64,000 nucleotides of DNA, taken from positions 7,151-71,150 of the forward strand of contig JAFGIX010000052.1 in assembly GCA_016929395.1 (NCBI GenBank), read 5' to 3'. Under the pieces are notes generated by a model. That model did no database searches and had not been told where the DNA came from. It worked only from the letters and a program-made list of their open reading frames with translations. Each line of letters begins with the position of its first letter. Position 1 is the first letter of the stretch. Position numbers and translations under genes: made by a program. Positions 11,344 to 55,745 of the stretch are shown in pieces. This DNA comes from Candidatus Zymogenus saltonus (GTDB lineage Bacteria; Desulfobacterota; Zymogenia; Zymogenales; Zymogenaceae).

Positions 11344-11378
11344 TCTATTTGACAAAACGCTATTGAGCCAATTTTAGT

Positions 11379-11475: not shown

Positions 11476-11522
11476 CCACTGAGCTTCCAATCAAAGAATT
11501 ACCATTGAAGGAGAATTTCCCT

Positions 11523-13842: not shown

Positions 13843-14562
13843 TCAAACGTGTTTTCGCAGGATTTCTCTTATCGTGAATACCGCCTTATCTAAATTCTCC
13901 TTTTTCAGAGGTTTGTAAAATTCCGGTATATGTATGGGTTTGTCTACTTTTCTTTCACCTTCCAGTAAAGTAATTATGGTGGGGGTTATATCGAAATGTG
14001 ATATTAAAGTATGAGTCGATGGGCTGCCAAAGGTTACATCCTTTAATTTAGAATAGTCGCCCCCCAACTGACTTTCCAGCTGAATTAGAATCAAATCTAT
14101 ATTCGGATATGCTTCTTTTAATAGCGTAAAGTCAACGAGTATTCTCTTTAACATTGCATTTTCTGTGTACGCCTTGCATTCAATAGCGACAACAAATTTT
14201 TTGTCTATGTGTACATGTAAATCTGTTGAAAGGCCATAGTAGTGTCTTTTTATATTGTCTCTGATATACTGTCGTGTCTCTTCATTTTTTATCTTTTCAA
14301 TGTAATCCTTTTTGATGGGGATTTTTACTTTGCGTCTATCCATAAATATTCTTTCGTCGCTACCCCCTAATGTCTCCCACGCCAAAGACACCATTAAACC
14401 AGCGATTGCTTCCACCAGTTTACCCTTCCCCGCTCTTACTATTCCTCCGTAGGCCCTGTCATCAGAATGTTGCGCTTTTTCATCTATCCCTTTTACAACA
14501 ACTTCGTAGGCCTTGATTGCTTTTTCGATATCTTTTTCAATGCTTTTAAGACTTTCGTCCAT
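13843..14562 (-). CDS. type II restriction endonuclease (PD-(D/E)xK), putative partner of adjacent MTase
   Basis: HVHIDKKFVVAIECKAY = D...ExK catalytic core; convergent, tail-to-tail with MTase; same low-GC island. Confidence 0.6.
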   Translation of the reverse strand: MDESLKSIEKDIEKAIKAYEVVVKGIDEKAQHSDDRAYGGIVRAGKGKLVEAIAGLMVSLAWETLGGSDERIFMDRRKVKIPIKKDYIEKIKNEETRQYIRDNIKRHYYGLSTDLHVHIDKKFVVAIECKAYTENAMLKRILVDFTLLKEAYPNIDLILIQLESQLGGDYSKLKDVTFGSPSTHTLISHFDITPTIITLLEGERKVDKPIHIPEFYKPLKKENLDKAVFTIREILRKHV

Positions 14563-21267: not shown

Positions 21268-21403
21268 TATGAAAAGGACATTTCAGCCAAGCAACTTAAA
21301 GAGAAAGAGAAACCACGGTTTTTTGAAGAGGATGAGCAGTCCCGGCGGCAGGAACGTTATAAAAAGGAGAAGGGCAAAGGGGAGAAAGAGGCTCTCCGCG
21401 TGA
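21268..21403 (+). CDS. rpmH: 50S ribosomal protein L34; reading frame interrupted by one extra G near 21300 in the displayed sequence
   Basis: [11 protein letters not shown] in frame 1, then [33 protein letters not shown] in the +1 frame; together a canonical L34. Confidence 0.6.
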
Positions 21404-21619
21404 TAAAAAAGCGAAGGGCGGCTCTTGATTGGATTTGTTGGGGAAGAATAGGGAAAGTGAGGGGAATGAAAGGCGGAGGAAAGGGGGAGGAGAGCAGATC
21501 CCGTTCGCGATGCTTCCTTAAATAACCGCTGTTCAAATAGTCTTTGCCTTGACCTACAAAATCCGACAAAACATTTTTTCATCTTAAGCGGCCGGTCATT
21601 ACTGCTTTAAGAGCTTTCA

Positions 21620-21658
21620 CGCCCCGGGTTATATTTTTCAGGGGCGGTTTTGTTTTTT
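21620..21658 (+). terminator. hairpin + T-run (terminator/attenuator) between rpmH and rnpA
   Basis: CGCCCC-N15-GGGGCG stem followed by GTTTTGTTTTTT. Confidence 0.5.
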
Positions 21659-21660
21659 AC

Positions 21661-21750
21661 GGTAGGGGTTGGGCGAATTTCTTGGGGTGGGCGAATTTTT
21701 TAAGGGGGAGGCAAATATTGCTCGGGGAATTTGCCTTTTTTGGGATTGGA
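21661..21750 (+). repeat. G-rich ~20-bp tandem repeats (GGGGTGGGCGAATTT-like) in rnpA leader
   Basis: four imperfect units read directly. Confidence 0.7.
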
Positions 21751-21850
21751 AACGCGGCTCAATTATCGGGGCAAGATTAGACAGGAGTGCCGATCTAATT
21801 TCAAGATATTTTACTTAGGTTTTTTTACAAACAAAACTGCCGGGAATTCG

Positions 21851-22345: not shown

Positions 22346-24001
22346 ATGGATAAAAAGACCCTTTTGGCCATCGTCCTCTCCTTCCTTATACTTATAATCT
22401 GGCAGAAATTTCTAGTAAAGCCGCCGGAGAAACCCGCTCCCGGTGAAGAGAGCACCACCGAGGAGATTACAAAAGAAGAATCGACAAAAACCGATGAGCC
22501 GGACGCCGAAAAGACCCCCGTGGAGACCGCAAAACCGGAGCCCAAGGGGAAAAAGTCCCCGACTCCGGTCGAGGAGGCGGGGAGGGAGATCGAAATTACA
22601 ACCCCGAAATACAACGCTGTACTGACCACCGAAGGGGGAAGGATTTCCTCCTTCAGACTGAACGATTACTCGGAAGCGATAGAGGAAAACTCGCCTCCGG
22701 TCGATATAATTCTCGAAGAGGTGAAGGACCTCTCCCCTAAGATCGCCTTCGACACAAATCTCGAGGAGTTCAGCGAGGATATAGTATATGCCACAGAGGC
22801 GACGGATAAGATCGAGCTGAATGAGGGCGATGAGCCTAAAAGCGTCGTTCTTGTCTGGGAGGGGGAAAATTTCCGGGTCGAGAAGAGCTACACTTTCAAC
22901 CCCGATACCTACGGGATTGATTTTGACTTCAAGATATACAATCTAACCGACAAAAAGGTCAAGGGAGATCTAGATGTATCCCTCTTTGAATATGTGAAGA
23001 AGGAGGAGAAAAAGTCGTTCAGTCTCTTTAGTGGATACCAGTTTCCGGCGAGTTTTCTTGTTTTCATAAACGGAAAAGTGGAGAGGGAAGTTGCGGCGAA
23101 GGTAAAAGAGGGGGAGGATAAGGTCATAAAGGGTGACATATCGTGGATCGGTTTCGACTCAAAATATTTTATGCTGGCCCTTTTGATAAAGGAAGTTCCG
23201 GGAGAAACGACGGAGGCGATAAGGCTGGAGACGGAGTTGATCGAGGGCGTCTATAGAGTCGGGGACTTCTCCCTCTCCGCCGGGGAGTCTTTCGAGGGAG
23301 ACATGGGACTGTACCTCGGCCCCAAAGACCCAAAGGCGATGGATGAGGTCGGCCATTCCCTGAGCGAGGCGATCGACTACGGTTTCTTCGCATTCCTCTC
23401 CATTCCCCTTGTAAAGCTTTTGAAGTTCTTCTTTATCATATTCAAGAACTACGGCGTCGCGATAATCCTGCTTACCGTTGTCGTCAGGCTTTTACTGTAT
23501 CCGATAACCCACAAGTCGATGAAGTCGATGAAGGATATGCAGAAGATACAGCCCCTGATGAAGGAGATCCGGGAGAAGTACAAGAACGACAAGGAGAAGA
23601 TGAACCAGGAGGTAATGCGCCTGTACCAGACCCACAAGATAAACCCGCTTGGCGGGTGTCTTCCCCTCTTCCTTCAGCTTCCGATTTTTATCGCCCTCTA
23701 CAAGGCGCTCTATGTCGCCATAGACTTGAGGCACGCCCCGTTCTGGCTGTGGATACAAGACCTCTCGGAGAAGGATCCTTATTACGTGACTCCCATCGTC
23801 ATGGGGCTCTCATATTTTCTCCAGCAGAAGCTCACACCCACCGGCGCCGATCCCACCCAGCAGAAGATTATGCTCATGATGCCGATTGTCTTTACGGTCA
23901 TCTTCCTCAACCTCCCTTCGGGATTGGTGCTCTATTTTCTCGTGAGCAACATCTTGTCAATAGCCCAGCAGCTTGTGACAAACAAGATAGTAAAGGATTA
24001 A
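22346..24001 (+). CDS. yidC: membrane protein insertase YidC
   Basis: N-terminal TM, large periplasmic domain, conserved C-terminal 5-TM core (LYKTHKINPLGGCLP...). Confidence 0.9.
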   Translation: MDKKTLLAIVLSFLILIIWQKFLVKPPEKPAPGEESTTEEITKEESTKTDEPDAEKTPVETAKPEPKGKKSPTPVEEAGREIEITTPKYNAVLTTEGGRISSFRLNDYSEAIEENSPPVDIILEEVKDLSPKIAFDTNLEEFSEDIVYATEATDKIELNEGDEPKSVVLVWEGENFRVEKSYTFNPDTYGIDFDFKIYNLTDKKVKGDLDVSLFEYVKKEEKKSFSLFSGYQFPASFLVFINGKVEREVAAKVKEGEDKVIKGDISWIGFDSKYFMLALLIKEVPGETTEAIRLETELIEGVYRVGDFSLSAGESFEGDMGLYLGPKDPKAMDEVGHSLSEAIDYGFFAFLSIPLVKLLKFFFIIFKNYGVAIILLTVVVRLLLYPITHKSMKSMKDMQKIQPLMKEIREKYKNDKEKMNQEVMRLYQTHKINPLGGCLPLFLQLPIFIALYKALYVAIDLRHAPFWLWIQDLSEKDPYYVTPIVMGLSYFLQQKLTPTGADPTQQKIMLMMPIVFTVIFLNLPSGLVLYFLVSNILSIAQQLVTNKIVKD

Positions 24002-24010
24002 GGTTCCGTA

Positions 24011-24673
24011 ATGGATTCTAACGATCACGCAGGACAGAACGAGGATTTGGGCATAGTCGTAACCGGCGTCGACCTCGAGGACGCCCTTAAAAGCGCGGCG
24101 GGTCAACTCGGATTGGATCGGAACAGCATGGAGTATCGGGTTATAGATTCGGGAGCGGGGGGAATCTTCGGGCTTCTGGGCAAGAAAAAGATCACCATCA
24201 GGGCGTGGGAGGCCGACTCCCAGAGGGCATTAAGAGACGCAATAGAGTTCCTGTCCGAGATATTGAGAAAGATGAAAATAGGCGCCAGGGTTGAGGGCGT
24301 CGAGGACGAAGACGGATTGAATCTCAATATCAGGGGGGAATCGGAAGGTTTAGTCATCGGAAGGCGGGGACAGACGCTGGACGCCCTTCAGTACATCACA
24401 AATAGATACATTCAGCGAATCCACGAGGGGAGGATACGGGTGGTCATCGACAGCGAGGGATACAGGAGCCGTCGTGAGCAATCGATCAGGAAGATAGCCA
24501 TAAGCCTCGGCAAAAAGGCAAAGAGGCTCGGGAAACCGGTTGCGGCCGAGCCTATGGGCTCCGTGGAGAGAAGGCTCTTTCACCTGGCACTGAAGACGGA
24601 TAAAGAGCTCAAGACGGAGAGCCGGGGGGAGGGCGAGAAGAGAAAGGTCATAATCTATCCGGTCAAGAGATAA
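24011..24673 (+). CDS. jag: RNA-binding protein Jag/KhpB (Jag-N, KH, R3H)
   Basis: R3H motif region and position after yidC. Confidence 0.8.
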   Translation: MDSNDHAGQNEDLGIVVTGVDLEDALKSAAGQLGLDRNSMEYRVIDSGAGGIFGLLGKKKITIRAWEADSQRALRDAIEFLSEILRKMKIGARVEGVEDEDGLNLNIRGESEGLVIGRRGQTLDALQYITNRYIQRIHEGRIRVVIDSEGYRSRREQSIRKIAISLGKKAKRLGKPVAAEPMGSVERRLFHLALKTDKELKTESRGEGEKRKVIIYPVKR

Positions 24674-24956
24674 GGGTCTTCAATCTTCGATCAACTTCAT
24701 CTTGGCATCAGACTTCAGACCGATTTGCCATTTCAGCGGGGGCTGCGGAATTTTTGACGAGGGAATATCTTTTTAGAATCAAGAGATCTAAGATAAAAGC
24801 CTACGGCCCATAGCAATCAATAGCAATGTCCGATGTCGTCTTTTTTATCACGGCTAAAAAAACTCAAAAGCTCAATATAAGATTACACCCCGGGAGATAT
24901 TCTTCGACTTATAAATTCGCTTCCAACTTTTCCATAACAGCCTTTCTTTTAAATAA

Positions 24957-26432
24957 ATGAACAGAGATTTTGACCGAAAGATCGATGCCGACACAATTGT
25001 CGCGGTGGCGACGCCCTGGGGAGAGGGTGCAATAGGGGTGGTCCGTCTCAGCGGCCCCGATTCCCTCTCCATTGGGAAAAAGCTCTTCAGATTTATCCAA
25101 AAGCCTCAAAAAATCGAAACCCACAGGATGTACCTCGGCGACGTCCTCGACTCCAACGGGAAGGCGATCGACCGCGCCCTTTTTGTCTTCATGGAATCGC
25201 CCAGCTCCTACACCGGGGAAGACGTCGTGGAGCTCCAGTGTCACGGCGGCCCCCTCCTCTTAGAGTCGGTGGTATTGGGAGCCGTGTCCGCGGGGGCGCG
25301 TCCCGCCGAAAACGGGGAGTTCACGAGGCGGGCCTTTATGAACGGGAAGCTCGATCTCGCCCAGGCGGAGGCGGTGCTGGACATTATCACCTCCGTCACA
25401 GAGAGGGGCCTTCTGGTCTCGGCGGGCCAGCTCTTCGGCGGGCTCTCCGGAGAGATCGAGGATATGAAGGAGGCGCTGGTTCTGCTCCTCGCCGACGTGG
25501 AGGCCTCAATAGACTTCCCGGACGAGGAGACCGAGATAATATCCCGGGAGGTCGTCATAAAAGAGTCGGAGCGTATCCTGAAGAGGATAGAAGAACTCCT
25601 CTCCACATACCGCCGGGGGAGGATGCTGAAAGAGGGCGCGAGCGTGGTCATTCTCGGGTGTCCCAACGTGGGGAAGTCGAGCCTGATGAACAGGCTTCTG
25701 GGGGCGGATCGGGCCATCGTAACGGCCGAGCCCGGAACGACCAGAGATACCGTCTGGGACTTTACCAGAATTAACGGCATCCCGCTCAAGATCGTCGACA
25801 CGTGCGGCATCCGGGAGGTCCTGGGCGAAGCGGAGCGGGAGGGGGTCAGAAGGGCATGGGAGGCGGTCTCGGGGGCCGACATAATCCTCCTTGTGATCGA
25901 CGTGACATCGGAAATCGGCAATGAGGAGGAGAGGATGATCTATCTCATCGAGGGCGGGGGGGCCGTAAAGGAGGGAGTCGCAACCCTCGTCGTCCTGAAC
26001 AAGGTCGATCTCCTCGATGTCAATGAACCGGAGGGAAAGGAAGATATGCGTATAAACGAGATGGAAGACCTCCCCTTTCCCTATCTCTTCACCTCAGCTC
26101 TGACGGGCCGGGGGATAGACGATTTGAGATCGGAGATCAGGAGGCTCCTCCTCGATGAGGCGGGGGGAGGCGGGGCCGCTTCCGACAGGATAATCATAAA
26201 CAACGCGAGACACCTTGAGGCCCTCTTGGGCGCAAGGAGATCCCTAACAGAGATATTAAACGGGGAAAATATCTACGGCCCGGGGGAAGGGAGGATCAAA
26301 AGACGTTTTGAGCCGGAGCTACTGGCTGTGGACATCCGCGGTGCGTTGACATCCCTTAAGGAGATTACTGGAGAGGTAGGAGCCGAAGATGTGCTCGACG
26401 CCATTTTCTCCCGATTCTGCGTCGGCAAATAG
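24957..26432 (+). CDS. mnmE: tRNA uridine-5-carboxymethylaminomethyl modification GTPase MnmE
   Basis: N-terminal THF-binding domain, G-domain GxPNVGKSSL, C-terminal CVGK. Confidence 0.9.
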   Translation: MNRDFDRKIDADTIVAVATPWGEGAIGVVRLSGPDSLSIGKKLFRFIQKPQKIETHRMYLGDVLDSNGKAIDRALFVFMESPSSYTGEDVVELQCHGGPLLLESVVLGAVSAGARPAENGEFTRRAFMNGKLDLAQAEAVLDIITSVTERGLLVSAGQLFGGLSGEIEDMKEALVLLLADVEASIDFPDEETEIISREVVIKESERILKRIEELLSTYRRGRMLKEGASVVILGCPNVGKSSLMNRLLGADRAIVTAEPGTTRDTVWDFTRINGIPLKIVDTCGIREVLGEAEREGVRRAWEAVSGADIILLVIDVTSEIGNEEERMIYLIEGGGAVKEGVATLVVLNKVDLLDVNEPEGKEDMRINEMEDLPFPYLFTSALTGRGIDDLRSEIRRLLLDEAGGGGAASDRIIINNARHLEALLGARRSLTEILNGENIYGPGEGRIKRRFEPELLAVDIRGALTSLKEITGEVGAEDVLDAIFSRFCVGK

Positions 26433-26459
26433 GGGCATTGATTATTCAAGGCATTTCGG

Positions 26460-26498
26460 GGGGCAATTGTTTCACGTGAAACAATTGCCCCTTTTTTT
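26460..26498 (+). terminator. perfect-palindrome hairpin + T7 terminator of mnmE containing parS
   Basis: GGGGCAATTGTTTCAC/GTGAAACAATTGCCCC stem then TTTTTTT. Confidence 0.7.
26468..26483. promoter_or_regulatory. parS: parS site TGTTTCACGTGAAACA (16/16 to TGTTNCACGTGAAACA consensus)
   Basis: exact match to chromosomal parS consensus; immediately upstream of parAB. Confidence 0.8.
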
Positions 26499-26519
26499 CG
26501 ACGGATCGCCCCCCGGGAG

Positions 26520-26535
26520 TGTTTCACGTGAAACG
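26520..26535. promoter_or_regulatory. parS: second parS-like site TGTTTCACGTGAAACG (15/16)
   Basis: one mismatch to consensus; 52 bp from first site. Confidence 0.65.
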
Positions 26536-26705
26536 TTTCGGCAATTTAATTCCTTATCGGCAAGACAAGCAGGGGATTTTTTTCAAATTATTGTCATTTT
26601 TATCTTATTATGTTCCATTTTCCACTTCCGATATTTAGAACTTTGTGATATATTACTTCGTATTTTTCGATCTCAATTCAATTCTGTATCAGGCTTAAAT
26701 ACAAT

Positions 26706-27479
26706 ATGGCAGCAAAGGTAATTTGTATTGCAAACCAAAAAGGGGGGGTGGGAAAGACCACCACCGCCGTTAACCTCTCCGCCTCTCTGGCTGCGGCGGA
26801 GAGAAAGACCCTCGTCATCGATATCGATCCTCAGGCCAACGCCGGGAGCGGGCTCGGAGTCGACAAGAACGAGGTCCGTGAGAGCATCTACCAGGTCCTT
26901 ATTGAAAAAACCTCCATATCGAAGATATTATTGAAGCCGAAAAGGGAGCTCCCCTTCCTGATGCTCGCCCCCTCGAACACCGACCTGATCGGAGCGGAGA
27001 TAGAACTTGTCGGGGCTATCGGCAGGGAGCAAAAATTGAAGTCGGGGATCGAAGAGATATTGGACAGATTCGATTATGTCTTGATAGACTGCCCGCCCTC
27101 CCTGGGACTTCTAACCGTAAATTCCCTCACGGCGGCACACAGCATCATCATCCCCCTGCAGTGCGAATACTTCGCCCTGGAGGGGTTGGGTCAGCTATTA
27201 AACACCATAAACATTATCAGAAAGAATATAAACAAACAACTCGTCATCGAGGGTATCCTCCTCACAATGTTCGACTCAAGAAACAACCTGTCCCATCAGG
27301 TTCAGGAGGAGGTGACAAAACATTTCGGCAAACAGGTCTTTAAAAGCGTTATTCCAAGAAACGTTAGTCTCTCGGAATGCTCGAGCTTTGGGCTGCCCAT
27401 CATCCTCTATGACATCAACTCGAAGGGGGCAATGAGCTACCTGGAGCTCACTCAGGAAATTATTCGGAGAGAGAGATAA
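26706..27479 (+). CDS. parA: chromosome partitioning ATPase ParA/Soj
   Basis: KGGVGKTTT deviant Walker A, full ParA fold. Confidence 0.9.
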   Translation: MAAKVICIANQKGGVGKTTTAVNLSASLAAAERKTLVIDIDPQANAGSGLGVDKNEVRESIYQVLIEKTSISKILLKPKRELPFLMLAPSNTDLIGAEIELVGAIGREQKLKSGIEEILDRFDYVLIDCPPSLGLLTVNSLTAAHSIIIPLQCEYFALEGLGQLLNTINIIRKNINKQLVIEGILLTMFDSRNNLSHQVQEEVTKHFGKQVFKSVIPRNVSLSECSSFGLPIILYDINSKGAMSYLELTQEIIRRER

Positions 27480-28351
27480 TGGCAAAGAGAAAGGCACTTG
27501 GGAAGGGACTCTCCGCGCTCATTCCGGACGCCGCACCGGTGGAAGAGTTCATCGAAAAGGGAGTGGGAAAGGTCACCCATGGAGATCTCTTTACGGTAAA
27601 GGTGGGGGACATTATCCCCAATCGTTATCAGCCCAGGAAGGACTTCGATGACGAAAAGATAGAGGAGCTTGCCGCCTCCGTCGAAGAGAATGGGATTATC
27701 CAACCCCTTATTGTCAGAAGCTCAGAAGACGGCTACGAGCTCATCGCCGGAGAGCGTAGGCTCAGGGCTGCAAAGAGGGCGGGCCTCGAGCGCGTTCCCG
27801 TGGTGATCAAGGATGTATCAGACTCCGAGATCCTACAGCTGGCATTAATCGAAAATATCCAGAGGGAAGACCTCAATCCGATCGAGGAGGCCAACGCCTA
27901 TCTTAGGCTGATCGAGGAATTCGATATTACCCAGGAGAATTTGGCCGGGCGCGTGGGCAAGGACAGGTCCACCATAGCAAACACCTTGAGGCTCCTTTCC
28001 CTTCCCGATGTCGTAAAGGAGGATGTGGCAAGGGGAGTCCTTTCCTCCGGTCACGCAAGGGCTTTACTTTCCCTAAACGACGAGAGGTCGATCCTCAAGG
28101 CGAGGGAAAGGGTCACGTCCAAGGGGATGTCCGTGAGGGAGACGGAGTCTTTGGTTAAGAGAATGAAAGAGGGCGAGCCTGAAAAATTGGCGAGGGAGGT
28201 AGATCACCTTCTCCTGGACATCGAAGACGAGCTTACCCGGACCCTCGGAACAAGAGTAAAGATCGTCTCCAGGGGAGCCGGCGGGAAGATAGAGATAGAG
28301 TATTATTCAGACCAGGAACTGGAGAGATTGACGGATATCTTGAAATCTTGA
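27479..28351 (+). CDS. parB: chromosome partitioning protein ParB/Spo0J
   Basis: ParB box GERRLRAAK, HTH, C-terminal dimerisation; TAATG overlap with parA. Confidence 0.9.
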   Translation: MAKRKALGKGLSALIPDAAPVEEFIEKGVGKVTHGDLFTVKVGDIIPNRYQPRKDFDDEKIEELAASVEENGIIQPLIVRSSEDGYELIAGERRLRAAKRAGLERVPVVIKDVSDSEILQLALIENIQREDLNPIEEANAYLRLIEEFDITQENLAGRVGKDRSTIANTLRLLSLPDVVKEDVARGVLSSGHARALLSLNDERSILKARERVTSKGMSVRETESLVKRMKEGEPEKLAREVDHLLLDIEDELTRTLGTRVKIVSRGAGGKIEIEYYSDQELERLTDILKS

Positions 28352-28472
28352 ACCGTTAAATGAACCTATTTTTTCGGTCTAATTCAGGTTTTCCGGCGGA
28401 ACGGTAAGGTGCGAATATATATTTTTTTTGTTCGGTTTTTTTATTTTAAAACTTCTGTTGGGGGATAATATC

Positions 28473-28952
28473 ATGTTTGGAAAAGTCAAGATCATCGGCG
28501 GCAAGAAACCGGAAAGCTTCGACAAGACATCCGAGCTTAACGCTTTTTTGGGGGAGGGAACTAGCTTCGAGGGATCCCTTTCCTTTGAGGGAACGGTAAG
28601 GGTGGAGGGAAAGCTTAAGGGCGATATCTTCGCAAAGGACATCCTTATCGTTGGGCACAACGGCAAGGTAGAGGGCGAGATCGAGGTCGACACGATTATC
28701 ATCAACGGCCTTGTAAAGGGAAATATCAGGGCCGCCAGAAGGGTGGAAATCTCACCGCCCGGGAGGTTCTACGGCGAGATCGAAACCCCCACTTTTGTCA
28801 TACACGAGGGGGGCATCTTTGAAGGCAACTGCAGGATGGAGCGGATAAAGGATGAGCTTACGGCGACCAAGTTTTCAACATCGCTGAGGGAGACGGGCCA
28901 CTACATGGTCAAGGAAGTAAACAAGAGTAACAGCGGCGGCTCCACCCACTGA
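28473..28952 (+). CDS. bactofilin (DUF583) cytoskeletal protein
   Basis: repetitive beta-helical core (FEGSLSFEGTVRVEGKLKGDI...GKVEGEIEVD...) with disordered tails; start at MFGKVKI with GGGGGA RBS. Confidence 0.8.
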   Translation: MFGKVKIIGGKKPESFDKTSELNAFLGEGTSFEGSLSFEGTVRVEGKLKGDIFAKDILIVGHNGKVEGEIEVDTIIINGLVKGNIRAARRVEISPPGRFYGEIETPTFVIHEGGIFEGNCRMERIKDELTATKFSTSLRETGHYMVKEVNKSNSGGSTH

Positions 28953-29006
28953 CGGTTGACTCAATCCCGTTCTATTTGCCCGTTATTTTTACTCTTTTTT
29001 TAAAAA

Positions 29007-29035
29007 TTCCCCTTGACATAAAAAAGGGCATATGG
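29007..29035 (+). promoter_or_regulatory. promoter TTGACA-N17-TAAATT upstream of atp operon
   Basis: hexamers read directly. Confidence 0.4.
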
Positions 29036-29099
29036 TAAATTCTCTGTTGAATGACTATTCATTCATTTATTGTAACCGTTTCTTTGGGTAATATAAAAA

Positions 29100-29525
29100 G
29101 TGCTGGAACTTAATTTCACATTCTTTATACAGATGATAAACTTCCTCGCCTTTGTCCTCGTGATAAACTGGCTCCTGGTAAAGCCTATACTTAGAGTCCT
29201 CGATGAAAGGAGGAACAGGGTAGAGGGAAACGAAGAAGAGTCGGAGCGCCTTCTGGCGGAGTCGGAAAGGATATTTAACGAGTACCAAACAGCCCTCAAA
29301 GAGGCAAGAATCGAAGCAAGCAGGGAGAAAGAGCGTTTGAGATCCGAAGGGATCGAAAGGGAATCCGAAATTATTAAGACAGCCAAAGAAGAGTCCAAGA
29401 ATATGACGGATAAGCTTAAAGAGGAGATCGCAAAGGAATCGGAAATGGCCTTAGCCAAGATGAAAAATGAAGCCGATGTCCTCTCTAAAGTGATCGCCGA
29501 GAAGATCCTCGAAAGGGAGATTTAA
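29100..29525 (+). CDS. atpF2: ATP synthase F0 subunit b'
   Basis: single N-terminal TM + long charged coiled coil; GTG start. Confidence 0.7.
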   Translation: MLELNFTFFIQMINFLAFVLVINWLLVKPILRVLDERRNRVEGNEEESERLLAESERIFNEYQTALKEARIEASREKERLRSEGIERESEIIKTAKEESKNMTDKLKEEIAKESEMALAKMKNEADVLSKVIAEKILEREI

Positions 29526-29526
29526 A

Positions 29527-30195
29527 ATGAACCTGAAGATAAAACTCACTCGCTCCCTTACCGTTCTGATAATCTTTGCAGTAGTCTCCATCTCCTTGGC
29601 CCTCTATACGACGCTTCTCGCCAACGGCGTGGTATCCATCGATGCCATGCAAAATGTCGCCTTCCTGAAAAAATTTGCCCTTTCGCTTGAAAGCGACATT
29701 AACAGATTCGAGGACTTCGCATGGAGAATAGCCAACTTCTCTATTTTGATCATCATATTGCACGTTGTCCTTACAGAAAAGATTATCGATTTCTTCTCGA
29801 ACAGAAAAAAGGCCATCCGCGAGGCCCTCGATGACGCGGCGGAATCCAAGATTAACGCCGAAAAGAGGTACCAAGAGATTACCGCAAAGTTTTCAAAGGT
29901 TAAGAAAGAGGTCGAAGAGCTCAGGACAACCTTTCTCGAAGAGGGGAAAAGGGAGCGTCAACGGCTGATTGAAACCGCCGCCAAGGAGGCGGAGAAGATT
30001 CGACTTATGGCCGAAAAGAGTATTGAACATGAGCTGATCATGGCAAAGCAGGCCATCAAGACCGAGACCGTTGATTTGGCCTTAAGTATCGCGGAACAGA
30101 TACTGAAAAAGAATATCAAGAAAAAAGACATCTCGAGAATGACCAACGAATATATTGAAAACACTATTAGTGAAAAGACTGCTAAACTGACATGA
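29527..30195 (+). CDS. atpF: ATP synthase F0 subunit b
   Basis: TM N-term + coiled coil; operon position. Confidence 0.75.
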   Translation: MNLKIKLTRSLTVLIIFAVVSISLALYTTLLANGVVSIDAMQNVAFLKKFALSLESDINRFEDFAWRIANFSILIIILHVVLTEKIIDFFSNRKKAIREALDDAAESKINAEKRYQEITAKFSKVKKEVEELRTTFLEEGKRERQRLIETAAKEAEKIRLMAEKSIEHELIMAKQAIKTETVDLALSIAEQILKKNIKKKDISRMTNEYIENTISEKTAKLT

Positions 30196-30743
30196 TTCAA
30201 AAAACCGTTGCAAGAAAGTACGCACGAGCCCTGATGGAGCTTGCCAAGGAAGACAACAAAAAGGAGCAATACGGAAAGGAGATATCCTCTTTTTTCACCA
30301 TGCTTAAAAGTGACAAAATGCTCTGGAGTTTTTTTGTCGGGCCTTCGGAATCTCTGGAGAACAAAAGGGCCGCCCTTGAGGAGATTTTGCCGAAATTTAA
30401 ATTTTCAAATGTGGTGCAGAATTTCATCCGTCTGATCTTTGAAAAGGAAAGGCTCTCATTCTTGGGGGATATAGTTGAAATCTACAACACCCTTTTGGAT
30501 GAGGCGGAGGGAAGGGTCAGGGCAAGGATAATAAGCGCCTCCCCCCTGACCAAGGCGGATTTAAATAAAATTGTAAAGGGACTCTCGGCCGCTATCGGCA
30601 AAGAGATAGTCGCCGACGTCAGTCTCGATCCTGAAATAATCGGTGGTATTATCGCCCATGTGGGTGGATTGGTCTTTGACGGAAGTATAAAGACCCAGCT
30701 GAACAATATTGGTTATAATCTTAAGAAGGAATACGTTAATTGA
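30192..30743 (+). CDS. atpH: ATP synthase F1 subunit delta
   Basis: OSCP-family sequence ([15 protein letters not shown]...). Confidence 0.85.
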
Positions 30744-30744
30744 T

Positions 30745-32253
30745 ATGGAAATCAAAGCCGAAGAGATAAGCAGTATTTTAAAGAAGCAGATTCGAGACTA
30801 CGAAAAGAAACTCGAAATCTCTGAAACCGGTACCATCCTCTATGTCGGCGACGGCATCGCCAGGATTCACGGCCTCGAAAACGCCATGGCCGGCGAGCTT
30901 TTGGAGTTTCCGGGGGAACTTACCGGTATTGTTCTAAACCTCGAGGAAGACAATGTGGGCGCGGCTATATTCGGTGAGGGTTGGCACATAAAGGAGGGTG
31001 ATATAGTAAAGAGGACCGGCCGTATCGCCGAGGTCCCAGTGGGAGAGGAGCTCCTGGGCAGGGTCGTCAACGCCCTCGGTCAACCGATCGACGGAAAGGG
31101 CCCCATAAAAACCAAGAACTTCTTCCCCATCGAGGTCAAGGCCCCCGGCATCGTATATCGCCAGCCGGTAAAGGAGCCCCTCCAGACGGGAATCAAGGCC
31201 ATCGACTCAATGACACCCATCGGGAGGGGACAGAGGGAGTTGATCATCGGCGATCGCCAAACGGGAAAGACCGCCATTGCCTTGGACACCATCTTGAATC
31301 AGCGGGATACGGACGTTGTCTCTATCTACGTGGCCATCGGTCAGAAGCGCTCCACGGTCGCCCGGGTGGTGGACATCTTGAACAAATTCGGCGCCATGGA
31401 TAAAACCATTGTCGTGGCTGTGACCGCATCTGAACCCGCACCGCTCCAATTTATTGCGCCTTACTCCGGCGTCACCATGGGCGAGTATTTTAGAGACAAC
31501 GAGAGTCACGCCCTTATAATCTACGACGACCTTTCAAAGCACGCAATGGCGTATCGTCAGCTCTCGCTCCTACTGAGGAGGCCCCCGGGAAGAGAGGCGT
31601 ATCCTGGGGACGTCTTTTACCTCCATTCGAGGCTCCTGGAGAGGTCGGCCAAGCTTTCGGACGACAAGGGGGGTGGATCGTTAACCGCCCTTCCCATAAT
31701 CGAGACCCAGGCGGGAGACGTCTCCGCGTATATCCCGACGAATGTAATCTCCATCACCGACGGCCAAATATTCCTCGAATCCGACCTTTTCTACTCGGGT
31801 GTTAGACCGGCCATCAACGTGGGACTTTCCGTCTCCAGGGTCGGCGGCAGCGCCCAGATAAAGGGGATGAAGCAGGTGGCCGGCTCACTGAGGCTCGACC
31901 TCGCCCAGTACAGGGAGATGGCCGCATTTGCCCAGTTCGGCTCCGACCTAGACAAGGCGACCCAGGCCCAGCTCTCCCGGGGAAGCAGGCTCGTTGAAAT
32001 TTTGAAACAGCCCCAATACAAGCCTCTGCCCGTGGAAAAACAGGTCCTTATCATATTTGCCGCCACAAACGGCTTCGTGGACGAATACCCGGAAGATGTT
32101 TTAAAAAAGTATGAGGAAGACCTTTATCTCTTTATGGAGACCAAAAATCCCGAGGTATTAAAGGAGATAAAGGAAAAGGGAGCGCTCACGAGCGAGCTCG
32201 AAAGGCAGCTCTCCAAGATAATCACCGATTTCAAAAAGAATTTTATAGTCTAA
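30745..32253 (+). CDS. atpA: ATP synthase F1 subunit alpha
   Basis: GDRQTGKTA Walker A, full alpha sequence; start at MEIKAEEI. Confidence 0.95.
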
Positions 32254-32316
32254 TTTTACCAATTAAGCTTGGCAGAAATTTGAAAAGCTATTTAAAAGAA
32301 ATATAACGGCAACCCT

Positions 32317-33177
32317 ATGGCGAATCTCAAAGACATACGAAAACGAATCCTATCTGTAAAAAGCACCCAGCAGATCACGAGCGCCATGAAGATGGTCGCC
32401 GCCGCAAAGCTCAAAAAGGCTCAGGATAGGATAGAGAAGGCAAGACCCTACGCCGATAAGATGATGGAGGTGCTGGCGAGCATCGCGCTGAGAACCAGCC
32501 CGGATGCTCATCCCCTCCTGAAGAAAAGACCCGCGGAGAAGGTGATGCTTGTCATCCTGACCTCCGATAAGGGACTCTGTGGAGCCTTCAACCAGAATAT
32601 CATCAAATCGACCGAGCTGTTCGTCAGGGAGAACAGGAAGAGATATTCCGATATTCAATTTACGATCATCGGTAAAAAAGGATACGACTACTTCAAAAAA
32701 AGAGACATTCAAATATACAGAGACTTCGTGGGATTTTCGGGAAACGTCGATTTCGAGCTGGCGGGCAATATCTCCTCCGATATAAAGACCAGGTTTCTGT
32801 CGGGTATGGTCGACGAAATATACCTAATGTACAACAGGTTCCTTTCCGTAATGAGCCAGAAGATCGTCTTCGATCGGATCATCCCTATCGTCCCCCTTAA
32901 GGTGCCCGATGGTGAGTTGGCCCTCGAACATATCTTCGAGCCTTCCGAAACGGAGATATTGGACGATATCTTGGCGAAAAACATCGTGATTCAGGTTTTC
33001 AGGGCCCTCCTTGAATCGGAGGCCTCCGAGCTGGGAGCAAGGATGACCGCAATGGACAGCGCCACATCCAACGCCGATGAGATGATCGAAAAGCTTACCT
33101 TAAAGTACAATCGCGCCCGCCAGGAGACTATTACCAAAGAGCTTATTGAGATTGTAGGGGGGGCTGAGGCGCTTTAA
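32317..33177 (+). CDS. atpG: ATP synthase F1 subunit gamma
   Basis: MANLKDIRKRI...ITKELIEIVGGAEAL. Confidence 0.9.
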   Translation: MANLKDIRKRILSVKSTQQITSAMKMVAAAKLKKAQDRIEKARPYADKMMEVLASIALRTSPDAHPLLKKRPAEKVMLVILTSDKGLCGAFNQNIIKSTELFVRENRKRYSDIQFTIIGKKGYDYFKKRDIQIYRDFVGFSGNVDFELAGNISSDIKTRFLSGMVDEIYLMYNRFLSVMSQKIVFDRIIPIVPLKVPDGELALEHIFEPSETEILDDILAKNIVIQVFRALLESEASELGARMTAMDSATSNADEMIEKLTLKYNRARQETITKELIEIVGGAEAL

Positions 33178-33472
33178 ACTTTTAGGAAACCCGAACTTTC
33201 GGGTACAAGAGATCTTTTTGGCTTAATCGTTGTCGGGAATCATGAAGAGAGGTTAATATAATCATTTAACGATAAAGTGGTGCAAACCGGTTTTAATGGG
33301 GCTTCGAAAGGCAACTTAAATGTATTTTTGGTTATATAACTTTTTATCCAAAAGTAAAGGAAGCTTTTTCCTCCACTAAAAAGTTGTTCGGTGCTTTTTT
33401 AGGATTTGAAATTTGTGCTGTTTTCTTATATTGTTTTCAAATTCTTTTGCATATTCAAGTTACGTTGGCTAA

Positions 33473-34894
<1,422 letters not shown>

Positions 34895-34904
34895 TCCCAG
34901 CCTC

Positions 34905-35105
34905 CAAAAGAGGGGAGGCAGGGACTAATACATGGGGGGGAGGTTCTAATAAAAGGGGGGTAGGGGCTGATAGAAGGAGGGCAGGGTTTGATACATGGAG
35001 GGGCAGGATTTTATACAAGTGGGAGAGTTGATGTGAGAGGTGCGTGGTCTGATGCGATAGGGCAATGTCTGATGGAAGGGGGCAGGGTCTGATAGAAGGG
35101 AAGGC
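34905..35105 (+). repeat. G-rich ~21-bp degenerate tandem repeats (GGGGCAGGGTCTGATAGAAGG-like), about 9 units, between atpD and atpC
   Basis: read directly; no ORF. Confidence 0.85.
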
Positions 35106-35157
35106 TTTTTAACTACTAATTGGATATTTATCCTAAACCCTTAGGGGAAAAAAAGAG

Positions 35158-35568
35158 ATGGGAATCCAACTTGATATAATTACTCCTGACAGGATCGTCG
35201 CCAGCGAGGAGGTGGATAAAGTCGTATGCCCGGGTATCGACGGGGAGTTCGGAGTGCTTCCGGGCCACGTCGGTTTGATGACGAAGCTCAGGATCGGCGA
35301 GGTCAATTATTACGGAATCGACACCAAAAGGGAACACTATCTGGTGGTAACCACCGGCTACGTCGAAGTAACAAAAGACAAGGTAACTATCCTCCCCGAT
35401 TGGTGCATAAGATCAAGGGATATAGACAAAGTCCAGACGGAAATCGACCTCAACAAGGCCGAGGATATAATAAATAACGCCGAAAAGGAAACCGAGGAGT
35501 ATATTAAGGCGAAGGATGATTATCTCCTTGCCAAGGCCATCCTAAAACTCTGGGATAAGATAGGATAA
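35158..35568 (+). CDS. atpC: ATP synthase F1 subunit epsilon
   Basis: beta-sandwich + helical hairpin epsilon sequence. Confidence 0.9.
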   Translation: MGIQLDIITPDRIVASEEVDKVVCPGIDGEFGVLPGHVGLMTKLRIGEVNYYGIDTKREHYLVVTTGYVEVTKDKVTILPDWCIRSRDIDKVQTEIDLNKAEDIINNAEKETEEYIKAKDDYLLAKAILKLWDKIG

Positions 35569-35690
35569 GGGCCGCCCCTGTCGGCAAGCGAACGATATAT
35601 GGGAGACATGGGGGGAAGAAGGGGCAGGGAGAAATACGATTGGGCACGTAGGGTATGATGGGGCAAGGAGAATACGATAATAAACAGTAG
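35569..35690 (+). repeat. second G-rich repeat tract (GGGGCAGGGAGAAATACGAT-like) immediately after atpC
   Basis: read directly. Confidence 0.7.
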
Positions 35691-38804: not shown

Positions 38805-39432
38805 TATTATTTCCTCCCCCCCTTTCCCTCTTTGTCTCTTTCCCTCTTCGGCTCTCCCTTTTATATATTATCCTCTGACTCTCACTTTTTTATAAGCTTA
38901 AAGGACATTCCGCATCCCACCTGCTATTTCAGGTCGCATCCTTTCGTGCTTCCACCCGTCGTGGGCTGTTGTTTCCGAGATACAACTGCGTTTTCCCAAT
39001 CCGTTTACGGCCCGAAACCGCATCCCCTCGGCTCAAAACACTTATTGCCCCGCCTTATCCCGCAGTTCACCGCCCCCCCAAACACTAACCAATCCACGGA
39101 CCCACCGACCTTCATGTACTTTAACTGTCTAAAAAAATGTGTAATCTATCTTCTCTCATCCCCATTGAAACCGAGAAACATCGAAGCCTTTTTTTAGCTA
39201 AATTTTATTTCCCGGCCGTCGTCTGAAACTGAAATCTCGATATATAAAAACAGGTGTTTCCTTAAAAATACAGCATAATTAGACATTTTTCTTTTCACAT
39301 GTATTAATATCGGCCGCCGACCATAACGATTTTCAGCGACCCGACACCACAAATATGACCGCGAGCAAGGGACCCGAATTAGTATCTACAATAGCATTAC
39401 GTCCCGGCTAAAAAAATTTTTCCAACCCCCGT

Positions 39433-40578
39433 TTACGACAGGTGAATCGTCCTGTCCTTCCAGACTATCCCCTGCTTGCTCATCACAACGAGCATCGCCC
39501 TTATGAACATCCCGACCCAGATGAGGGCTCCCAGTGGTAGAAATATTGCCTCGCCGAAGGTCAGTCCGAAGTTGCCCACGGCGGTCACAAACATGATGAT
39601 TCCGAGCAGTATTTGTACTATCGGGGCGATAAGCTGGAGCCCCGAAAAATCCGCCGTGAAGGGGAGCACCAGGATTTTAATTGCCGGATAGACGAAAATG
39701 GCGAAATAGAGAAGGGCAAGGAGCATCGACGCGATGATCGATCTGTTCGCCATCGAGTACAGGTATCTGGTAAGCCCCTCCCAGAGCTCGGGTGGCTTGC
39801 CGTGAACCTTCGCCTTCGCCAGGGATGCCCCGGAGAGGAGGCGTATCTTCCCCCCTTTTTTCTTCATGGCCCTGGCCAGCGCCACTCCTTCCCTTATACT
39901 CTCGCTCCCGGAGCTATGCCCGCCTATCTTCTTGTATGCCTCCCTTTCTATCATCATGCACTGTCCGTGGGCGTAGGCGGCAAGGGGCTCCCAGGGCCAA
40001 TCCATGGCGTAGGAGGGAAAGAGCAGAAAGAGGTGAAAATATTTAAAGGGCGCTAAAATTCCCTCGATAAATCCTTCTTTTGTCTGAAAGGGGATCATAG
40101 AGACTATCCCAGCGCTCCTCTTTTTCGCCGCGGACACCATCATCGACAGCGCCTTCCTGTTCAAGACCACGTCCGCGTCCATGAAGAGGAGGTATTTCCC
40201 CCGGGAGACCTGGGCAGCCTGAAAGGAGGCGTAAGGCTTTCCAATCCAGTGGGGGGCGATCTCCCTCCCCCGTGCCAGCCTGAATCGGTCATTCCTTGAG
40301 GCGATCTCGTTTGCCAGCTGGAGGGTTTTATCGGTGGAGGCGTCGTCCACGACGATTACCTCGAATCGGGGGTGATCCTGGGCCGCCAGTGCGTTGAGAC
40401 ACGCCTTTATATTTTTTGCCTCGTTCCTCGTCGGGATAAGGACCGAGACCGAGGGCAAGGCGTCCCTCCCGAGGTTTTCCTCGGGCTCCTTAATCCTCAT
40501 CTTATTCATTATGACGTTTACGAAGAGCAATACGGTCAAGACAATGAGTAATAAATCCAAAAATGATGCATATTCCAT
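39433..40578 (-). CDS. glycosyltransferase family 2 (membrane-bound)
   Basis: VSVLIPTRNE...VIVVDDASTD DxD architecture, C-terminal TM helices. Confidence 0.85.
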   Translation of the reverse strand: MEYASFLDLLLIVLTVLLFVNVIMNKMRIKEPEENLGRDALPSVSVLIPTRNEAKNIKACLNALAAQDHPRFEVIVVDDASTDKTLQLANEIASRNDRFRLARGREIAPHWIGKPYASFQAAQVSRGKYLLFMDADVVLNRKALSMMVSAAKKRSAGIVSMIPFQTKEGFIEGILAPFKYFHLFLLFPSYAMDWPWEPLAAYAHGQCMMIEREAYKKIGGHSSGSESIREGVALARAMKKKGGKIRLLSGASLAKAKVHGKPPELWEGLTRYLYSMANRSIIASMLLALLYFAIFVYPAIKILVLPFTADFSGLQLIAPIVQILLGIIMFVTAVGNFGLTFGEAIFLPLGALIWVGMFIRAMLVVMSKQGIVWKDRTIHLS

Positions 40579-48521: not shown

Positions 48522-48911
48522 TAACGACCCAGTGTCCTTCCTTCTCTTGAAGAGACGTGATATTTTAAATTTAGATTGCAGTAAGATTCCCTCCCTTTGC
48601 GGCTTTATTCTCCCGCCTCTTTCCCGTTGCGATTTCAGTTCAACCGTTGACCCCATCGCAAAACGTTGTCACTTATAAACAACCGGCTAGCCCCTGTCGT
48701 CTTCGAGCGACCTCGATCAGAACAGGCTTATCCCGCCCCCCGTTCAACTTTTCTCCCGTTCAACCCTGCTGAAAATCTCTCCCCAACAGCTCATCAACCC
48801 GCTATTTTGACATATCAAATAAGCCTTCCCTTCCCGCAAAGCTCAATTAGATGATAACAGAAACCCGTAATCCCCCCTCCATTTTCTTCTGAATGGGCTT
48901 TCAAGAAAAAA

Positions 48912-51626: not shown

Positions 51627-51884
51627 GATCTTAAAACCAAACCTCACTGAAAACTGAAACTTAAAAATAAAACCGGGGAGAACTCCCCAGACCTTGGAAA
51701 TAAGCCTTGTATTTGTAACAAGCTTTTGCCGATTGCTGTTTTAATTAAACCGTTTCGTTATTAGTTTAATATTATAAACGGCTATCTAAAATCAAGTCAT
51801 TTAGATAAATCAAATAACCTAAATGATTTGAACAGTCAATGCCTTCAATCAGGATGTGCAACGGCCGGATCAGCGTGACTATTT

Positions 51885-52090
51885 ATCTACCCCCCTCCCT
51901 ACCCCCAAAGCCTTCAATCCCTTTTTACACCCCGAATTCCACCAGGCCTCTACATGTCCCGCCCCAACCCCCCCAACCTTTCCCCAACCCCCACGACTTT
52001 TCCCCAACCCCCACGACCTTGCCCCAACCCGCCCCAACCTCGTCCCGACTTTACTCTAATATTGGTCAACCCCCCACCAACACCCCTTGC
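51885..52090 (-). repeat. G-rich (minus strand) GGGGTTGGGG-type tandem repeats in alaS 5' leader / recX 3' flank
   Basis: plus strand reads CCCCAACCCCCACGAC.. repeated about 8 times. Confidence 0.85.
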
Positions 52091-52561
52091 TCAGATCCTC
52101 CTTATCGCCTCCTCTATCACTTCCCAGCCGAAGCCCCTCCTCTTGAGCTTTACGATTATCTCCTCCTTGAAACCTTCCTTCAATCCTTCCCCCCTCCCCT
52201 TTTCGATCGACATCCTCTTTTCCACGAACCGCTTCGCCCCTGAAATCTCCCTTTCCAACACATCGGGACTTTCAAGCGCACCGTCCACTATCTCCCTCGA
52301 AACGCCCCTCTTTTGAAGCTCCGCCCTTATCTTCATCTTTCCCCAGGACTTTCTCACGAGCCCGTATTCGAGAAAGCGCTCCGCAAAATCAACGTCGTCG
52401 AGGTATTTATCCTCCTGAAGTCTATGCAACACATTTATCACGGCCCCTTCATCCATTCCCTTTTTTAGCAGCTTGATTTTAAGTTCATATACGCTGTGGG
52501 GGCGCCTGCCGAGGCTTTTTAACGCGGAGTCCAGTACTCTTTCTTCTTCGGCCTGATTCAC
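52091..52561 (-). CDS. recX: recombination regulator RecX
   Basis: three-helix-repeat RecX sequence; GTG start abutting pilT stop. Confidence 0.85.
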   Translation of the reverse strand: MNQAEEERVLDSALKSLGRRPHSVYELKIKLLKKGMDEGAVINVLHRLQEDKYLDDVDFAERFLEYGLVRKSWGKMKIRAELQKRGVSREIVDGALESPDVLEREISGAKRFVEKRMSIEKGRGEGLKEGFKEEIIVKLKRRGFGWEVIEEAIRRI

Positions 52562-55358: not shown

Positions 55359-55524
55359 TAATCACCGCTCCACGACTCAATATTAATATCTCCAATAACT
55401 TCAATATCTCTACATCTATCAATATCTTTCCGGCCCCTACCTTGTTTGCCGTCACCGCCTACAATCCCCTGACCCTCATATATTGTAAAACTAATTACAA
55501 AAACAGTCTATAAATATTTGAAAT

Positions 55525-55552
55525 AATCTTCGCGCCAAAAAATCTTCGCGCC
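55525..55552 (-). promoter_or_regulatory. direct repeat AATCTTCGCGCC x2 (16-bp spacing) upstream of thpR-recA
   Basis: two identical 12-mers at 55525-55536 and 55541-55552. Confidence 0.3.
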
Positions 55553-55745
55553 CCCATCATGCTTGGATGAATCGTGAAAACTCCCCTTCCACCGTATCTG
55601 GCTTATCTACAAACTTTTAATCCAATTTCCGACATCTCTGTATTCTCATTTAGCCCGTTCTAAACGCCGTTCTCCTTCAAACTGCTGGGTTTGTGCCACC
55701 CATTTTCACACAAACTTCTTCTCCCCGTTCTCTCCCCTCCGCATG

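Follow-up and report, generated by a model that had tools for sequence, protein, structure and literature searches.

G-quadruplex-forming heptameric intergenic repeats have been described in Xanthomonas (GGGAATC) and in Nostoc/Anabaena (GGGGA(C/T)T); they show a strong bias to non-coding DNA, are favoured between co-oriented open reading frames (ORFs) and immediately past stop codons on the coding strand, are scarce between divergent ORFs, and are found at the same loci in related species with varying length and sequence, while their function is unknown (Rehm et al., 2015; PMC4692102). Nucleotide composition is also central to the loading of the Rho factor, which takes place on a C>G "bubble", C-rich and G-poor with regular YC dimers, the values of %G, %GG and %GGG being inversely related to termination (Nadiras et al., 2018; PMC6144790). 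The present study concerns G-rich intergenic tracts, two of which flank atpC, in a 64,000-nucleotide stretch (the window) of contig JAFGIX010000052.1 from Candidatus Zymogenus saltonus, a member of the Zymogenaceae (Desulfobacterota, class Zymogenia) represented by a metagenome-assembled genome, with whose AlaS and PurL the proteins encoded in the window agree at 100% identity; the analysis covered these 64 kb of the genome and a few relatives. The original prediction had described the tracts as a lineage-specific family of degenerate tandem repeats of about 20 bp, dispersed over six or more loci. The results show that they are a compositional class and not a dispersed homologous repeat. In the compared genomes, what is conserved is the excess of G over C on the sense strand of particular spacers.

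Six G-rich tracts were found by reading the sequence, at the positions which the original prediction had given:

Tract A, 991-1265, plus strand: degenerate period-8 array with units GGGGATT, GGGAGATT and GGGGCGTT, beginning 12 nt past the stop codon of a pilin-like gene (485-979).
Tract B, 11395-11475, plus strand: G-rich, no significant periodicity, between a sigma-70 promoter and the lexA start.
Tract C, 21661-21750, plus strand: about four loose units of 18-20 nt (GGGGTGGGCGAATTTTTT), inside the rpmH-rnpA spacer.
Tract D, 34905-35105, plus strand: about ten degenerate 21-nt units with the consensus (A)GAAGGGGGCAGGGTCTGAT, in the atpD-atpC spacer.
Tract E, 35590-35675 (35569-35690 in the original prediction), plus strand: three to four units (GGGGCAGGG...ACGAT), downstream of atpC.
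Tract F, 51885-52090, minus strand: G-rich from 5 nt past the recX stop codon, core at 51962-52040.

On the sense strand of the neighbouring genes, the six tracts are characterized by a G content of 0.39-0.52 and a C content of 0.07-0.15. GGGG occurs 66 times over all tracts against about 42 occurrences expected from base composition, so the G residues are clustered in runs. The identity of the flanking genes (pilin-like protein, LexA, RnpA, AtpD, AtpC, AlaS, RecX) is supported by Pfam, and at all six tracts the G-rich strand is the sense strand of the adjacent gene or genes, which the original prediction had claimed for the four tracts 5' of a gene. Over 10,945 bp, both atpC-flanking tracts included, the sequence is the same in an independent Logan assembly contig (L001), and G-rich spacers are found at the corresponding positions in relatives from other samples. 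Therefore, an assembly artefact, which the original prediction had named as a possible objection, is unlikely as the source of the tracts.

Significant tandem periodicity was detected in only three of the six tracts. The period is 8 in tract A (autocorrelation at lag 8 of 0.55, null 99th percentile 0.41; Tandem Repeats Finder, TRF, reports period 8 at 1150-1195) and 21 in tract D (0.52, null 99th percentile 0.43; 5.3 copies by TRF), at the end of which TRF found a further array of period 20 with 2 copies (35060-35100). The core of tract F has period 20, with 3.9 TRF copies of GGGGGTTGGGGAAAAGTCGT at 86% matches. Neither autocorrelation nor TRF found significant periodicity in 11395-11475, 21661-21750 and 35569-35690. 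The predicted unit length of 19-22 bp is thus correct for tract D and for the core of tract F, and incorrect for tract A with its period of 8 and for the three aperiodic tracts. The copies within the arrays are degenerate (71-86% matches) and follow head to tail, each unit consisting of a G-run (G3 or longer) and an A/T linker, which gives GGGRNRTT in the pilin tract and units with two G-runs each in the atpD-atpC and alaS tracts. Phased DNA bending would suit periods of 20-21 bp, which correspond to two turns of the helix, but not the array with period 8.

The repeat search over the whole window found no family spanning two loci, the families being confined to the alaS tract (D2), the pilin tract (D6) and the atpD-atpC tract (D14). 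The 8-mers common to pairs of tracts showed no excess over dinucleotide shuffles, except marginally for the two tracts that flank atpC, which have 7 of them in common (2.4 expected; at least 7 in 12 of 300 shuffles). Of the three occurrences of GGGGCAGGG in the window, two are in the atpC tracts and one is at a coding site; GGGGTTGGG was found in three tracts (lexA, rnpA and alaS) and also at two sites within coding sequence. The motif GGRGATTGR, with 11 matches (5.5 +/- 2.4 expected), 4 of which lie within the pilin tract, was considered as a dispersed signal and rejected. The units of tracts D and E align to a common GGGGCAGGG-N-YGAT consensus, in which the YTGAT linker is the best-conserved part. 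The bracketing of atpC by two tracts with related units is therefore real. On alignment, the units are unrelated between loci for every other pair of tracts, an outcome that the original prediction had itself named as refuting, and for this reason the tracts have to be regarded as a class defined by composition. Neither the skeleton supposed to be common to all loci nor the novel dispersed repeat family was borne out.

These results bear on two further explanations. The first is that the tracts represent a dispersed mobile or REP/MITE-like family, or an artefact of assembly. Several superficially similar loci within 64 kb could suggest it; however, the tracts are not homologous between loci and contain neither inverted repeats nor hairpins, and the identity of the Logan contig and the G-rich spacers of relatives from other samples also speak against it. 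This explanation is hardly credible any longer and has already been largely refuted. The second is that the tracts are arrays of binding sites, either a sponge of the CsrA/RsmA type with GGA motifs or operators read through the TGATA linker of the atpC tracts. GGA is enriched in the pilin tract (21 occurrences against 13.2 +/- 2.8), the YTGAT linker is conserved as described above, and the atpD-atpC spacer of a distant relative (L101) contains a comparable GATAGAGGGGG motif. However, the other five tracts show no enrichment of GGA or AGGA, no GGA is placed in a hairpin loop, the unit sequence is different at each locus and no tract matches Rfam, which makes binding-site arrays very improbable. 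A CsrB/RsmZ-type sponge for CsrA in particular was rejected, given the GGA enrichment in the pilin tract only, structure that does not exceed that of shuffled sequences and the missing Rfam match.

The position of the tracts relative to genes is regular. At the pilin gene, atpD and recX, 5-17 nt separate the stop codon from the beginning of the tract, at rpmH the G-rich stretch follows the stop directly, and the tracts end 50-260 nt ahead of start codons. AtpD (33491-34894) and AtpC (35158-35568) are separated by a spacer of 263 bp, most of which is filled by tract D, with the first G-run 17 nt past the atpD stop and the end of the tract 53 nt before the atpC start. RecX (52091-52561) and AlaS (48984-51647) are both encoded on the minus strand, and tract F lies upstream of a promoter-like site (51800-51771) and of a conserved hairpin in the alaS leader. 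This GC-rich hairpin with a U-run (51673-51690, minus strand; downstream of the promoter-like site) precedes the alaS start codon by 25-60 nt in each of the five Zymogenaceae genomes that were examined (the window, L095 at 9936-9965, L096, L097 and L100) and is identical in the window and L095; it could be an attenuator of the alaS leader or the recA-recX terminator.

rpmH was recognized as a 44-codon ORF at 21269-21403, and therefore the tract attributed to rnpA lies inside the rpmH-rnpA spacer (21404-21850), which is 447 bp long and has a skew of +0.28, with 16 G3+ runs and 2 C3+ runs. This length is unusual for a gene pair that is normally tight. On the other strand, a longer but spurious ORF (21283-21582) hides the rpmH gene. 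Upstream of the lexA tract, the sequence TTGACA-18-TATAAT at 11295-11324 matches all 12 sigma-70 consensus positions, and the lexA start was read as ATG at 11523-11525, about 50 nt past the end of tract B. Because it stands between this promoter and the start codon, the tract is probably located within a 5' untranslated leader of about 190 nt. The stretch that carries the perfect promoter (11246-11343) is C-rich, and the palindrome CCAACACCAGTTGG at 11330-11343, directly past the promoter and near the expected transcription start, is a candidate LexA operator. At the pilin locus, the gene at 1852-3357 on the minus strand encodes a membrane protein, and the overlapping plus-strand ORF is not the gene; the pilin tract is therefore situated in a convergent spacer. 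Downstream of the tract there is a hairpin, GGCCTT-CAA-AAGGCC, followed by a T-run (about 1318-1345; read by eye, the hairpin scan gave no flag). The minus-strand transporter gene at 1852-3357 is followed, at 1529-1567, by 3.9 tandem copies of a 10-bp unit (ATTGATTGAG-like) whose G-rich strand is the minus strand. This repeat and the pilin tract face each other with the central hairpin between them, and thus both convergent genes have repeat-bearing 3' flanks with G>C on their own sense strands.

Strong sense-strand skews, expressed as (G-C)/(G+C), were found, for example, at 980-1415 (+0.61), 34895-35157 (+0.52), 55359-55745 (+0.51) and 51627-52090 (+0.47). Where the skew is strong, the G excess always lies on the sense strand of the gene that ends just upstream, and the same direction was observed in all five co-directional spacers with strong or moderate skew. 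The six divergent spacers of the window have few or no G3+ or C3+ runs, and none of them contains a tract. A role of the tracts as Shine-Dalgarno or standby sites was rejected given their distance from the start codons, and a coding remnant or small ORF was rejected as well: no ORF of at least 80 amino acids crosses a tract, and the atpD-atpC units carry in-phase TGA, TAA and TAG.

Besides the six tracts, further G-rich stretches and one array that the original prediction had not listed are present in the window, and the first three of those given here are aperiodic:

21404-21500, plus strand: purine- and G-rich stretch immediately past the rpmH stop, with 21429-21499 flagged by G4Hunter.
About 48600-48900, minus strand: spacer downstream of alaS, G-rich and C-poor, past an apparent intrinsic terminator.
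About 55440-55745, minus strand: cinA-ligT spacer, G-rich and C-poor, sense-strand skew +0.51.
38818-38855, minus strand: short (AAAGAGGG)n array, period 8 or 16, at the distal end of the long spacer that follows a glycosyltransferase gene (39433-40578, minus strand).

The relatives, designated by L numbers, were compared by protein identity to the window. The spacers covered were recX-alaS, cinA-ligT, atpD-atpC and those downstream of alaS and atpC (in L090/L095, L097, L100, L101 and L096); the lexA and rnpA tracts were outside the cross-species comparison, and L098 (PurL 76% identical) is not syntenic around rpmH, rnpA and lexA. L090/L095 (AtpC 78%, AlaS 89%) are syntenic with the window. 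Their atpD-atpC spacer has 153 bp and the G tract is absent, and downstream of atpC they carry a G-rich stretch of different sequence. In L095, the spacer downstream of alaS is likewise G-rich, the cinA-ligT spacer (491 bp) has a skew of 0.50, and the recX-alaS spacer, although G-rich (skew 0.46), lacks the 20-bp array. At this place the window has about 110 bp of additional sequence, aligned to a single GGTTGGGGGGG seed in L095; the recX-alaS array is thus a local expansion of about 110 bp. The recX-alaS spacer is purine-rich and C-poor with few G-runs in L097 (AlaS 86%; G 0.28, C 0.09), starts with GGGGATG-like repeats in L100 (AlaS 70%; skew 0.31) and is AT-rich in L096 (AlaS 74%; same genome as L101), the cinA-ligT spacer of which has a G content of 0.47. 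The atpD-atpC spacer has 118 bp in L101/L102 (AtpC 63%; G 0.33, C 0.06), with GATAGAGGGGG units that resemble those of the window, 182 bp in P0001 (AtpC 89%) and about 25 bp in L002 (AtpD 86%). Among 73 other genomes, its median length is 27 bp and its maximum 147 bp, with skews from -0.33 to +0.29. A scan of JGI metagenomes with AtpC gave only distant relatives (at most 41% identity).

The same spacers nevertheless keep their skew. The sense-strand values are 0.51 for cinA-ligT in the window, with 0.68 in L096 and 0.43 in L100 besides L095, although the sequences are unrelated; 0.47 for recX-alaS in the window, with the L095 and L100 values given above; and 0.52 for atpD-atpC in the window compared with 0.70 in L101. 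Since the G>C skew is retained at the same spacers while sequence and length differ, composition at particular spacers is, in these comparisons, the property conserved across the family, and sequence, length and arrays are species-specific. The term lineage-specific therefore has to be qualified, the individual arrays being limited to a species, whereas the G-rich spacer as such is common to several Zymogenaceae genomes.

Two side observations were made in the relatives. On the L098 contig (ENA ERZ24794679), a tract with G-runs about 32 nt apart lies downstream of purQ (5475-5800), and several copies of a palindromic element (…caagacaatgggcttaagcccattgtcta…), REP/MITE-like in look, are present in its spacers, e.g. 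7572-8217, 8980-9416 and 10604-11798. Moreover, an intergenic segment of about 280 nt (38960-39240 of the window, minus strand; 13680-13930 of L090) is well conserved with long runs of identical columns, although the other spacers of the window and L090 are mostly unalignable or have only short segments in common. It gave no Rfam match at E <= 1 and, to judge from its conservation, may be an unannotated non-coding RNA or leader.

The ability of the tracts to form G-quadruplexes (G4), proposed in the original prediction, was assessed in silico. Canonical G4 motifs (loops of up to 7 nt) are present in the pilin tract (1063-1089 and 1142-1193), the tract downstream of atpC (35601-35629) and the alaS tract; with loops of up to 12 nt, motifs are additionally found in the rnpA and atpD-atpC tracts. 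G4Hunter gave whole-tract scores of 1.04-1.56, and with G4-aware folding, five of the six tracts had minimum-energy structures that contain RNA quadruplexes. However, the G4 motifs of the window total 14 with loops of up to 7 nt and 31 with loops of up to 12 nt, compared with 10.0 +/- 3.2 and 30.7 +/- 4.9 in dinucleotide shuffles of 500-bp blocks, and shuffled tracts reach the same G4-inclusive folding energies (z -1.7 to +0.2). No base-paired structure beyond that of shuffles was found in the tracts (RNA folding z -1.5 to +3.0). Because motif counts and energies match the shuffles, the quadruplex potential appears to follow from composition, and no arrangement selected for folding is apparent. 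The prediction of G4-forming elements thus holds for the computed potential, but this potential seems no greater than the composition itself provides.

A regulatory role has to be considered in this context, in which folding of DNA or RNA into G4 would control transcription, translation or mRNA decay of lexA, rnpA, atpC and alaS. Apart from the motifs, the G4Hunter scores and the excess of GGGG, it is favoured by the lower minimum free energy when G4 are allowed: -71 instead of -44 kcal/mol in the pilin tract, and -84 instead of -32 kcal/mol in the alaS tract. Nevertheless, counts and energies at shuffle level give no sign of selected arrangement, a distance of 50-260 nt to the start codons keeps the tracts clear of ribosome-binding sites, the lexA tract contains no G4 motif even with 12-nt loops, and the L097 spacer is C-poor and purine-rich and yet has few G-runs. 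Regulation by G4 is, in consequence of these points, improbable.

G-runs on the sense strand are not limited to the spacers. In coding regions, 18 G4 motifs lie on the sense strand and 2 on the antisense strand, and the density of G4 motifs in the window is 0.48 per kb, compared with a median of 0 in the other loci that entered this count, close relatives L090-L095 included. Codon usage is unusual, with AGG making up 51% of Arg, GGG 36% of Gly and GAG 70% of Glu codons; because of this preference, runs of four or more G reach 7.8 per kb on the sense strand of coding regions and 3.9 per kb on the antisense strand.

The explanation that we tentatively prefer, without giving it even odds, is that the tracts are locally arisen slippage arrays in transcribed spacers which are depleted in C and G-rich on the sense strand, and thereby poor for Rho loading. 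The local origin of the arrays is indicated by the single-locus families, by 8-mer sharing at shuffle level and by the difference of about 110 bp between the recX-alaS array and a single seed. In favour of the explanation as a whole are also the sense-strand orientation of the tracts and their position past stop codons, the promoter ahead of the lexA tract, the skew kept in relatives despite changed sequence, the unusual length of the atpD-atpC spacer, the lack of base-paired structure and the positional rules in common with the published repeats. The arrays would most simply be products of slippage: at each locus separately, replication slippage or unequal recombination would multiply a unit of one G-run, or a pair of them, with its A/T-rich linker, which gives micro- or minisatellite-like arrays. 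The spacers would be transcribed together with the flanking genes. Being C-depleted and G-rich, the sense RNA would offer no C>G "bubble" on which Rho could load, and long untranslated spacers could then be read through without polarity (atpD-atpC, 263 nt; rpmH-rnpA, 447 nt; recX-alaS, about 460 nt; the lexA leader, about 190 nt). In the C-rich antisense RNA, by contrast, Rho would find an excellent substrate and bring about termination. RNA quadruplexes are a possible by-product, which could also slow 3' exonucleases. In compositional terms the "bubble" rule fits, the sense-strand skew being +0.47 to +0.61 over 260-460 nt in the main spacers.

Several points weigh against this explanation. 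Transcription of the tracts is deduced from gene order, one promoter match and the positions of terminators, and the G-rich stretch downstream of alaS lies past an apparent intrinsic terminator, so that not every tract need be part of a read-through transcript. In the closest species (L090), the atpD-atpC spacer of 153 bp has a skew of only +0.07; therefore, skew is not obligatory for this spacer. Gene strand and G>C skew co-vary throughout the window, with a sense-strand skew of +0.095 in coding regions, and a mutational bias linked to replication or transcription could produce the orientation without selection. The orientation test is based on only five co-directional spacers (p about 0.03) and is confounded with the co-variation of gene strand and skew.

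The tracts might also be functionless, neutral by-products of a lineage-specific, strand-biased mutation process and of slippage-prone G-run units. This would account for the rapid turnover of sequence and length between species, including the absence of the atpD-atpC tract in L090 and the spacer of only about 25 bp in L002, for G4 counts and energies not above composition-matched shuffles and for the abundance of sense-strand G-runs in coding regions (AGG, GGG and GAG preference), and the analogues in Xanthomonas and Nostoc are likewise without any function found. On the other hand, the same spacers remain skewed down to about 70% AlaS identity despite unalignable sequence, which is more easily reconciled with constraint than with drift. 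Deamination of cytosine on the non-template strand predicts T>A, with which the contents of the tracts do not agree (A 0.18-0.32, T 0.14-0.33), and the divergent promoter spacers have no tracts. A purely neutral origin is somewhat unlikely by itself, and it is still nearly as likely as the favoured reading of slippage arrays in Rho-evading spacers; a dedicated G4 function is less likely. A stronger form of the favoured reading is doubtful at best, namely that sense-strand G-run spacers are a selected, orientation-dependent insulator in Zymogenaceae, the C-depleted, G4-prone RNA of which would block the loading of Rho, and perhaps also 3' exonucleases, and so permit very long untranslated spacers in essential operons (263 nt in atpD-atpC, 447 nt in rpmH-rnpA), while the C-rich complement would enforce the termination of antisense transcripts; the spacers would then tune the expression ratio of neighbouring cistrons by expansion and contraction of arrays.

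The significance of the tracts depends on this distinction. If the G>C skew is selected, they would be a clear natural case in which composition, and not sequence or structure, is conserved in a non-coding element, and they would give a testable function (Rho evasion or protection of RNA 3' ends) to G-rich repeats that have lacked an assigned role since 2015. Should the skew be no more than a by-product of mutation, the results are a descriptive note on an uncultured lineage of unusual composition, with AGG-rich codons and G4 motifs at 18 to 2 in favour of the sense strand.

Some features of the window are separate from the tracts. A perfect 21-nt inverted repeat, AAAGGGATAGATGAAAAAGCG, too long to occur by chance, has arms at 4814-4834 and 14473-14493, with 9.6 kb between them. 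The start codon and ribosome-binding site of the gene at 4824 are covered by one arm; the other is close to the 5' end of a gene on the minus strand (13843-14562). Gene order from rpmH-rnpA continues with yidC-jag-mnmE-…-parA-parB-bactofilin and the atp operon (22346-35568). This arrangement is typical of the vicinity of a chromosomal replication origin; dnaA is not present in the window, and GC skew simply tracks gene strand. No Rfam family reached the gathering threshold over the whole window, and no tRNA or tmRNA genes were found in it.

Among known systems, CRISPR arrays likewise consist of short-period intergenic repeats, but they combine near-identical repeats of 24-48 nt with unique spacers of similar length, whereas the units of 8-21 nt abut here without spacers and are 71-90% alike. 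No cas genes were found among the window proteins scanned, and the exclusion of CRISPR by the original prediction was correct. With the REP/BIME elements of enterobacteria the tracts have in common their intercistronic and 3'-flanking positions in operons. REP elements stabilise upstream mRNA; they are palindromic, hairpin-forming and dispersed as homologous copies, whereas the tracts are non-palindromic, C-poor, unstructured and unrelated between loci. The complements of the tracts correspond to the rules for Rho utilization (rut) sites, since they are long, C-rich and G-poor with regularly spaced YC dimers, and the sense strands are the opposite of this; the resemblance is compositional only, and the rules come from E. 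coli and Salmonella (PMC6144790).

The similarity to the Xanthomonas and Nostoc/Anabaena repeats is close, although some differences have to be mentioned. There is no single genome-wide heptamer here; the periods are 8, 20 and 21 nt with a consensus of its own at each locus, the copies are far more degenerate (71-86% matches), and several tracts are aperiodic and G-rich by composition only. The preference for four units known from the published class is not visible in the present arrays, which have about 4, about 10 and more than 20 units and are too few to judge. K+-dependent G4 folding was demonstrated for the published repeats, whereas the folding of the tracts was assessed in silico. The GGGGA(C/T)T repeats of Nostoc/Anabaena overlap the cyanobacterial STRR repeats. 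The features in common are the tandem organization of G-runs with short A/T-rich linkers, the location between co-oriented ORFs or past stop codons (none of the six divergent spacers being occupied), the lack of association with mobile elements, and the G-richness of the same spacers in relatives with varying sequence and length. Moreover, literal GGGGATT units occur in the pilin tract and GGGGATG-like units in the recX-alaS spacer of L100. By this analogy, the tracts may be regarded as the Zymogenaceae counterpart of the G-rich intergenic simple repeats published for Xanthomonas and Nostoc.

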